This document shows, piece after piece, positions 45,001-48,000 of a DNA stretch of 64,000 bases (positions are counted from its first letter, which is position 1; every line of letters starts with the position of its first letter). The position numbers were made by a program. This DNA is from Escherichia coli. Its GTDB lineage: Bacteria; Pseudomonadota; Gammaproteobacteria; Enterobacterales; Enterobacteriaceae. The stretch lies in the NCBI RefSeq assembly GCF_045037415.1, contig NZ_CP173438.1; one strand, given 5' to 3'.

Positions 45001-48000
45001 GGGTTCTTATAAATGCACTTTGCGTGCCGCCCGTAACTACGCGGCACGCCATTTTCGAATAACAAATACAGAGTTACAGGCTGGAAGCTATGTCAAACAA
45101 ACCCTTTATCTACCAGGCACCTTTCCCGATGGGGAAAGACAATACCGAATATTATCTACTCACTTCCGATTACGTTAGCGTTGCCGACTTCGACGGCGAA
45201 ACCATCCTGAAAGTGGAACCAGAAGCCCTGACCCTGCTGGCGCAGCAAGCCTTTCACGATGCTTCTTTCATGCTCCGCCCGGCACACCAGAAACAGGTTG
45301 CGGCTATTCTTCACGATCCAGAAGCCAGCGAAAACGACAAGTACGTGGCGCTGCAATTCTTAAGAAACTCCGAAATCGCCGCCAAAGGCGTGCTGCCGAC
45401 CTGCCAGGATACCGGCACCGCGATCATCGTCGGTAAAAAAGGTCAGCGCGTGTGGACCGGTGGCGGTGATGAAGAAGCACTGTCGAAAGGCGTCTATAAC
45501 ACCTATATCGAAGATAACCTGCGCTATTCACAGAACGCGCCGCTGGACATGTATAAAGAGGTCAACACCGGCACGAACCTGCCTGCGCAAATCGACCTGT
45601 ACGCGGTAGATGGCGATGAGTACAAATTCCTCTGTGTCGCTAAAGGCGGCGGCTCTGCCAACAAAACGTATCTCTACCAGGAAACCAAAGCCCTGCTGAC
45701 GCCCGGCAAACTGAAAAACTTCCTCGTCGAGAAAATGCGTACCCTCGGTACTGCAGCCTGCCCGCCGTACCATATCGCGTTTGTGATTGGCGGTACGTCT
45801 GCGGAAACCAACCTGAAAACCGTCAAGTTAGCAAGCGCTCACTATTACGATGAACTGCCGACGGAAGGGAACGAACATGGTCAGGCGTTCCGCGATATCC
45901 AGCTGGAACAGGAACTGCTGGAAGAGGCACAGAAACTCGGTCTTGGCGCGCAGTTTGGCGGTAAATACTTCGCGCACGACATCCGCGTTATCCGTCTGCC
46001 ACGTCACGGCGCATCCTGCCCGGTAGGCATGGGAGTCTCCTGCTCCGCTGACCGTAACATTAAAGCGAAAATCAACCGCGAAGGTATCTGGATCGAAAAA
46101 CTGGAACACAACCCAGGCCAGTACATTCCACAAGAACTGCGTCAGGCAGGTGAAGGCGAAGCAGTGAAAGTCGACCTTAACCGCCCGATGAAAGAGATCC
46201 TTGCCCAGCTTTCGCAATACCCGGTATCCACCCGCTTGTCGCTCACCGGCACCATTATCGTGGGTCGCGATATTGCACACGCCAAGCTGAAAGAGCTGAT
46301 TGACGCCGGTAAAGAACTGCCGCAGTACATCAAAGATCACCCGATCTACTACGCGGGTCCGGCGAAAACGCCTGCCGGTTATCCATCAGGTTCACTTGGC
46401 CCAACCACCGCAGGTCGTATGGACTCCTACGTGGATCTGCTGCAATCCCACGGCGGCAGCATGATCATGCTGGCGAAAGGTAACCGCAGTCAGCAGGTTA
46501 CCGACGCGTGCCATAAACACGGCGGCTTCTACCTCGGTAGTATCGGCGGTCCGGCGGCAGTACTGGCGCAGCAGAGCATCAAGCATCTGGAATGCGTCGC
46601 TTATCCGGAGCTGGGTATGGAAGCTATCTGGAAAATCGAAGTAGAAGATTTCCCGGCGTTTATCCTGGTCGATGACAAAGGTAACGACTTCTTCCAGCAG
46701 ATCGTCAACAAACAGTGCGCGAACTGCACTAAGTAACCTCTTCGGCCCAGCGCCTGGCAGCATGCTGCCAGGTGATCCCCCTGGGCCACCTCTTTTGCGA
46801 TTGTAATTTCACGCTTGCTGGTGAATAGTCAGTATTTTCCCTGACTTGCGAACTCACCATGACCCGCACACTCAAGCCGTTAATTCTTAACACTGGCGCA
46901 CTGGCGCTAACGTTAATCCTGATTTATACCGGCATTTCGGCCCATGACAAACTCACCTGGCTGATGGAAGTGACACCGGTGATTATTGTCGTGCCGCTAC
47001 TGCTTGCCACCGCTAAACGTTATCCGTTAACGCCGCTGCTTTATACGCTCATTTTCTTTCACGCCATCATCCTGATGGTCGGCGGGCAATACACCTACGC
47101 GAAAGTCCCCGTTGGTTTTGAGGTGCAGGAATGGCTGGGGTTGAGCCGTAATCCGTATGACAAACTGGGACATTTTTTCCAGGGGCTGGTGCCTGCACTG
47201 GTGGCACGAGAGATCCTTGTACGCGGGATGTACGTTCGCGGACGTAAGATGGTGGCGTTTCTGGTCTGCTGCGTGGCGCTGGCGATAAGCGCGATGTATG
47301 AATTAATCGAGTGGTTGGCAGCGCTGGCAATGGGCCAGGGAGCTGATGATTTTCTCGGCACCCAGGGCGACCAGTGGGACACGCAATCCGATATGTTCTG
47401 CGCGCTGCTTGGCGCATTAACGACGGTGATATTCCTCGCTCGCTTTCATTGCCGCCAGCTACGGCGCTTTGGCTTAATCACCAGAGCGCCGGAAGCGATT
47501 ACCCCTTAACGGTGCAACCAGCCTGGCAGCCAGTCGCCGTGGGCGGCAATCAGGTCGTCAACAAGAGCATATATTTCGTCAATGCCCAGCACGGCGGCAG
47601 TATGCGGGTCCATCATCGCGGCGTGGTAAACACGGTCGCGATTTTCCGTAAGAATAGCTTCTGTCAGCAGCGTCTGTACGTTGATGTTGGTTTGCATCAG
47701 GGCGGCCAGATGCGAAGGTAGCGTACCGGCTTTGGTCGGCTGAATGCCATTAGCATCAACCAGACAGGCCACTTCCACGCAACATCCTTGTGGCAGGTTA
47801 TCAATCAAACCATCGTTACGGACATTGCCATAAATCACACTCGGCTCGCCAGTCCAGATAGCGTTCATGATTGTGCTGGCATATTCCCGTGACGGTTTAA
47901 TATCAATCCGGGAGGCGTTTTTATAATCCTCCAGCTCTTTATGCCAGTTCGCCAGCTGCTCGACGCAGCGTTTCGGGTACTCATCCAGCGGTACTTTATA

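Follow-up and report, generated by a model that had tools for sequence, protein, structure and literature searches.

The Escherichia coli stretch analysed here (64,000 nt in length, hereafter the window) carries a mel locus without melB, in which the alpha-galactosidase gene melA and the convergent gene yjdF abut directly and end on overlapping stop codons. This melB-less arrangement is real, and the junction is inherited and typical of a lineage, not specific to the strain. We consider it very probable that the locus represents one old inherited deletion allele, formed long before this strain, in which MelR and MelA were kept and MelB is gone.

Anatomy of the yjdF-melA junction

The region around the junction comprises dcuB and fumB upstream and melR and adiA downstream (Table 1). 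The sequence-only reading had placed the end of yjdF at 47509 and that of melA at 47506, with both stops overlapping on a TTAA, and ORF calls confirmed these positions: the genes overlap by 4 nt, the palindrome TTAA, and the stop codons have 2 nt in common. From its K-12-equivalent start (MMSAPKIT), melA encodes 451 aa. The K-12 arrangement described in this reading, i.e., melA followed by melB and a convergent yjdF encoding 209 aa, agrees in both respects with the K-12 locus.

Table 1. Features at and around the yjdF-melA junction, in window coordinates
Feature	Position	Strand	Description
yjdF, 216-aa form, DUF2238 inner-membrane protein	46859-47509	+	ORF; 97.1% to K-12 YjdF residues 1-208
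Junction hairpin	47462-47491		11-nt arms, 8-nt loop; inverted repeat, 91% complementary
Sequence across the junction	47480-47519	+	accagagcgc cggaagcgat taccccttaa cggtgcaacc
23-nt junction filler	47483-47505		AGAGCGCCGGAAGCGATTACCCC; stands in place of 1,668 nt of K-12
TTAA common to both convergent stops	47506-47509		yjdF TAA 47507-47509; melA TAA, minus strand, 47506-47508
melA, alpha-galactosidase, 451 aa, intact	47506-48861	-	ORF; 99.1% identical to K-12 MelA
melA-melR divergent regulatory region	48862-49143		
melR, AraC-family activator of the mel promoter, 302 aa, intact	49144-50052	+	1 substitution vs K-12, F96L

No MelB-like sequence was detected in the whole 64-kb window, either by tblastn with K-12 MelB as query (best E = 4.8) or by low-stringency blastn, so that the locus, with melR and melA present and melB absent downstream of melA, is not a complete mel operon. 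Base-by-base comparison and blastn against the K-12 melAB-yjdF region, an alignment proposed in the sequence-only reading, showed that yjdF homology stops at codon 208 (window ~47482-47485) and that homology on the melA side restarts at the melA stop (47506). Relative to K-12, 1,668 nt have been removed, consisting of the last yjdF codon with its stop, the REP-containing spacer, melB and the melA-melB spacer; the loss of melB together with both intergenic spacers, as originally proposed, was thus borne out by tblastn, blastn and the base-by-base alignment. The net size difference between K-12 and the window is 1,645 nt, and the same interval measures 9,646 nt in genomes with melB versus 8,001 nt in the window. 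Direct-repeat microhomology was sought at the breakpoints, and none was convincing.

The junction also changes the protein encoded by yjdF, whose C-terminus the sequence-only reading had suspected of being remodelled. YjdF of the window has 216 aa and ends in ...GLITRAPEAITP (also given as ...QLRRFGLITRAPEAITP); G209 is replaced by R and followed by APEAITP, so that seven residues are added, and the new tail is encoded by the filler plus the first base of TTAA. At every examined locus outside the melB-less Escherichia, which include Escherichia, Citrobacter and Kluyvera with melB as well as melB-less Citrobacter, YjdF has 205-210 aa and usually ends in ...GLITG, ...GLITVN or ...ALIATN. In every melB-less Escherichia examined it has 216 aa with the tail RAPEAITP (RAPEATTP in E1V33), and among the loci examined the RAPEAITP tail is confined to the melB-less Escherichia allele. 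The suspicion therefore proved right, as the 216-aa form occurs only in melB-less Escherichia. The identical sequence in strain SK1144 is annotated in RefSeq as yjdF, a DUF2238 protein, and dN/dS of yjdF between pairs of melB-less lineages is 0.04-0.09. The yjdF segment 46859-47485 shows unusual polymorphism and a mosaic structure: two E. coli genomes with the junction differ by 3.8-4% there, and the same two are 0.1-0.8% apart in dcuB, fumB, melA, melR and adiA.

A conserved GC-rich hairpin (GCGCCGG ... CCGGCGC) lies just past the melA stop in all genomes with melB; in K-12 this hairpin folds at -21 kcal/mol (z = -3.4). The filler holds the 9-mer GCGCCGGAA, equal to one arm of this hairpin and in the right place and orientation. 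In local alignments of the filler with the deleted K-12 or Citrobacter sequence, GCGCCGGAA was the best match, and 40 of 200 shuffles scored as well. The filler may hence be a remnant of the melA-melB spacer; position and orientation are suggestive, while the GCGCCGGAA match alone is not significant. The junction has a hairpin of its own, in which the native yjdF 3' end CGGCGCTTTGG (47462-47472) pairs with the filler sequence CCAGAGCGCCG (47481-47491) and which folds at -24.9 kcal/mol (z = -3.0) as plus-strand RNA and at -26.5 kcal/mol (z = -1.8) as minus-strand RNA. No T-run follows this hairpin on either strand, and a promoter/terminator scan returned no terminator-like site that employs it, so that convergent read-through at yjdF/melA may be possible.

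In another part of the window, ~15 kb (24910-40058) are without a K-12 counterpart and are bordered by K-12-collinear sequence on both the ghoT/lysS side and the yjdJ side. Its genes include those for two large autotransporters (1,309 and 1,279 aa), for an AraC-family regulator and for a chaperone-usher fimbrial set.

Distribution and age of the junction

A 601-nt query centred on the junction was searched in 5,426 complete E. coli genomes. It was contiguous in 1,264 (23%), in many of them at 100% identity; in genomes without a contiguous junction its yjdF and melA portions matched separately. Of the 5,426 genomes, 4,137 have the K-12 melB segment, with an identity to K-12 of 99% or more in 4,126 of these 4,137. 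Counts for the junction and for melB are complementary (sum 5,401 of 5,426), and the absence of melB from junction-bearing genomes is taken from these complementary counts together with the 64-kb window. The order of the window, yjdF (651 nt) and then melA directly, is also found in the RefSeq annotation of SK1144 and 95-3322. The filler of 95-3322, a B2-like strain, is identical to that of the window despite 3.8% divergence in yjdF, which argues for a single origin of the junction; the filler is identical in EcN_Sk as well. Identity of the window flanks is 99-100% to many genomes that bear the junction and 96-99% to K-12. In E. coli strains that have melB, this gene has diverged by about 0.7-0.9%, not much less than melA. 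In this lineage yjdF thus natively abuts melA, an observation that the sequence-only reading had named as evidence against its proposal; the abutment is as supposed there, but it shows an old lineage-wide deletion and not the absence of a deletion.

Loss of melB is already known as a trait of phylogroup B2. Touchon et al. 2009 (PMC2617782) include 'melB, melibiose permease' in their list of genes missing from B2 strains, and melB is reported as lost by phylogroup B2 in Gonzalez-Alba et al. 2019 (PMC6896753). Our B2 label for the junction genomes rests on the passages on melB in these two papers, and the 23% share of junction genomes plausibly fits the share of B2 in RefSeq.

Some matches mark other routes of melB loss in otherwise melB-bearing genomes (NZ_CP103745.1, NZ_CP066839.1 and NZ_CP074033.1); such routes include IS5-like and IS1 insertions within melB. 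For strain PI7, the junction query matches only in its yjdF half, without melA, and the melB-segment query only in its first 91 nt. The EcN_Sk record (NZ_CP172017.1; L086/L088) is a mosaic: it agrees with K-12 at 100% identity for >22 kb on the left of the junction and for long stretches on its right, and B2-type patches cover the 3' end of yjdF together with the junction (where yjdF has an 8-nt frameshifting deletion), the mel intergenic region, eptA-basR and phn. We dropped this record as a B2 exemplar because B2-type sequence is limited to these patches. The mosaic could stem from natural recombination, strain engineering or reference-guided assembly.

To determine the wider distribution of the locus, one genome per species was scanned with a MelA query and then searched by tblastn with MelA, MelB and YjdF. 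The order melA-melB-yjdF was recovered in Citrobacter gillenii, C. amalonaticus, C. portucalensis, C. braakii and several Kluyvera, and melA and melB are adjacent in Salmonella, Serratia, Vibrio, Photobacterium and others. Given this gene order in relatives, melB adjoining melA is ancestral in enterobacteria, which makes the locus of the window a deleted form. The junction recurs in three further genomes, namely Escherichia whittamii (L004), 'E. coli' SCPM-O-B-8794 (L005) and Escherichia sp. E1V33 (L081), each with 1-3 substitutions in the filler and the same 27-nt spacing (7353-7380 in all three loci, homologous to window 47483-47509). Flanking genes of these three are 90-97% identical to the window and their melA dS to the window is 0.34-0.45, so that these lineages did not recently acquire the junction from B2, and the allele long predates the B2 radiation.

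Escherichia sp. MOD1-EC7003 (L006) has melB and differs from K-12 at 9 of ~1,600 nt over melB and the spacers, while the flanks of the two (yjdF, fumB, melA) are 3-4% apart (L006 1490-3157 vs L001, K-12, 2339-4000). A nearly identical melB segment between diverged flanks bears the mark of recent exchange and indicates that insertion and deletion alleles have been exchanged among lineages by homologous recombination. Site patterns in yjdF, compared for introgression versus vertical descent, form a recombination mosaic too mixed to decide between the two.

Five Citrobacter youngae-like genomes (L012, L022, L026, L027 and L072, ~7353-7425) are also without melB and have melA and yjdF as convergent neighbours. 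Unlike the Escherichia allele, they have ~60-70 nt with a REP-like hairpin between the stops and a normal 210-aa YjdF end, and their junction has no homology to the Escherichia filler. Judged by these junction sequences, melB loss in Citrobacter is an independent event.

Retention of melA and melR and history of the locus

Every melB-less lineage examined retains full-length melA and melR. Between pairs of melB-less lineages dN/dS is 0.012-0.03 for melA and 0.015-0.045 for melR, at dS up to 0.45, and these low values indicate that the orphan MelR-MelA module has been kept by selection. In the window, where melA is now the sole structural gene of the mel operon, MelA has four conservative substitutions versus K-12, and the 94 nt adjoining melA upstream have two mismatches.

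The centre of the mel intergenic region (~48955-49080) exists in two sharply different haplotypes, whose differences (38 of 282) are clustered in ~120 nt and surround the conserved core ATCTGAGTTTATGGGAATAAATTACCTGAAAAGC. The window has one haplotype in common with EcN_Sk; K-12, 95-3322 and other, melB-bearing genomes share the other. We rejected the idea that this haplotype tracks melB status, as 95-3322 is without melB and carries the K-12-type patch.

Other accounts of the locus bear weighing against a single old deletion. The unusual stop-on-stop geometry, and nothing else, would speak for an error of assembly or a deletion that arose recently in this strain alone, but the identical junction in 1,264 independently finished genomes and the homologous junction in three other Escherichia lineages whose flanks have diverged render this account almost inconceivable. 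Ongoing decay of the locus, with melA and melR as functionless relics becoming pseudogenes, is a little less remote and still very unlikely. Operons without a dedicated permease often decay, and the neighbouring yjdF has an 8-nt frameshift in the EcN_Sk record; against this stand the full-length melA and melR of every melB-less lineage examined, dN/dS of 0.012-0.045 at dS up to 0.45, and the conserved core promoter.

The direction of change is harder to settle. The melB-less state might be ancestral to E. coli and its closest cryptic relatives, with the melB of non-B2 strains regained, or kept as an alternative allele, by recombination in the flanks. Several observations are in keeping with this account: the junction occurs in B2-type E. 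coli, E. whittamii, E1V33 and SCPM-O-B-8794 at melA dS of 0.34-0.45, the melB segment has been exchanged (K-12 vs MOD1-EC7003), and melB is nearly uniform (at least 99% identity to K-12 in 4,126 of 4,137 genomes). However, published reconstructions, in their passages on melB, put the loss on the B2 branch (PMC2617782, PMC6896753), melB divergence among E. coli with melB is not much under that of melA, and the mosaic yjdF makes introgression of the deletion allele equally possible in either direction. We regard an ancestral melB-less state as a minority possibility. It is with similar reserve that we suggest the junction to be a trans-species allele that predates E. coli, with melB presence and absence passed on by recombination in the yjdF and melA flanks and the orphan MelR-MelA pair kept for a MelB-independent role. 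If so, the 'loss in B2' would be an ancient polymorphism, or other phylogroups would have regained melB. One deletion junction across Escherichia species is a small, clean example of an indel allele that persists or moves by homologous recombination.

Under the preferred explanation, a single old and inherited deletion, an ancestor with the order melR / melA-melB / convergent yjdF would have lost ~1.6 kb, from the last yjdF codon to just downstream of melA, and with it melB and both spacers. A 23-nt remnant would have been left, through which yjdF would read to a stop overlapping that of melA, with a tail seven residues longer. The allele would have become fixed in a large E. coli lineage, B2 according to the published passages on melB, and would be present also in divergent Escherichia lineages. 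Such a cell would possess a working MelR-MelA module without the dedicated Na+/melibiose symporter; alpha-galactosides would reach MelR and MelA via another carrier, most probably the lactose permease LacY, and melibiose use would be lac-dependent. The analysis itself establishes how the junction is built, where it occurs, that it arose once, and that melA and melR are under selection, and from these the route of uptake and the phenotype are inferred.

Alpha-galactoside entry and comparison with known mel loci

MelR requires an intracellular inducer and MelA an intracellular substrate. As melA and melR are constrained without melB, another carrier would have to supply both. LacY transports melibiose, and entry of alpha-galactosides is probably by another carrier of which LacY is the most likely. 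The sequence-only reading had predicted that melibiose would be hydrolysed but not taken up via MelB, and the gene content is consistent with this prediction: MelA is intact (4 substitutions), MelR has 1 substitution and MelB is absent. Loss of MelB need not mean a melibiose-negative strain, since LacY also carries melibiose. The searched literature yielded no phylogroup-resolved melibiose phenotypes for B2 strains; in one strain collection 59 of 63 strains were melibiose-positive, with few B2 strains among them.

These results have consequences for annotation and modelling. Neither the stop-on-stop junction nor the 216-aa YjdF should be flagged as an error, both being genuine and typical of the lineage, and MelB-mediated uptake should be left out of metabolic models of B2 strains (ExPEC, ST131-like). 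An alpha-galactosidase and its regulator long constrained without their permease imply another entry route, probably LacY, which would tie melibiose use to lac expression.

The locus of the window and that of K-12 (L001) agree in the order and orientation of dcuB, fumB, yjdF, melA, melR and adiA, in MelA (99.1% identity) and MelR (99.7%), and in the conserved melA-proximal promoter. K-12 differs in having melB (473 aa), a 102-nt melA-melB spacer with a hairpin, a 138-nt yjdF-melB spacer with a REP-like element, and a YjdF of 209 aa. Another melA without melB, as at the window locus, is that of E. coli DW2 (melA+ melB- lacZY-), the standard melibiose-transport-null host, which must be both melB- and lacY- (PMC10374971). 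DW2 is engineered and also without lacY, and hence melibiose-negative; the window itself does not cover lacY. The published B2 trait resembles our case: the same gene is missing, melA is kept, and a frequency of 23% suits a major phylogroup. The passages on melB in PMC2617782 and PMC6896753 concern gene presence and absence only, and neither the junction anatomy and YjdF tail nor the occurrence of the junction in E. whittamii-like lineages and the selection on orphan melA and melR figure in them. Our additions to this known trait are modest and comprise the junction anatomy, its sharing across lineages, purifying selection on melA and melR, and the independent loss in Citrobacter.
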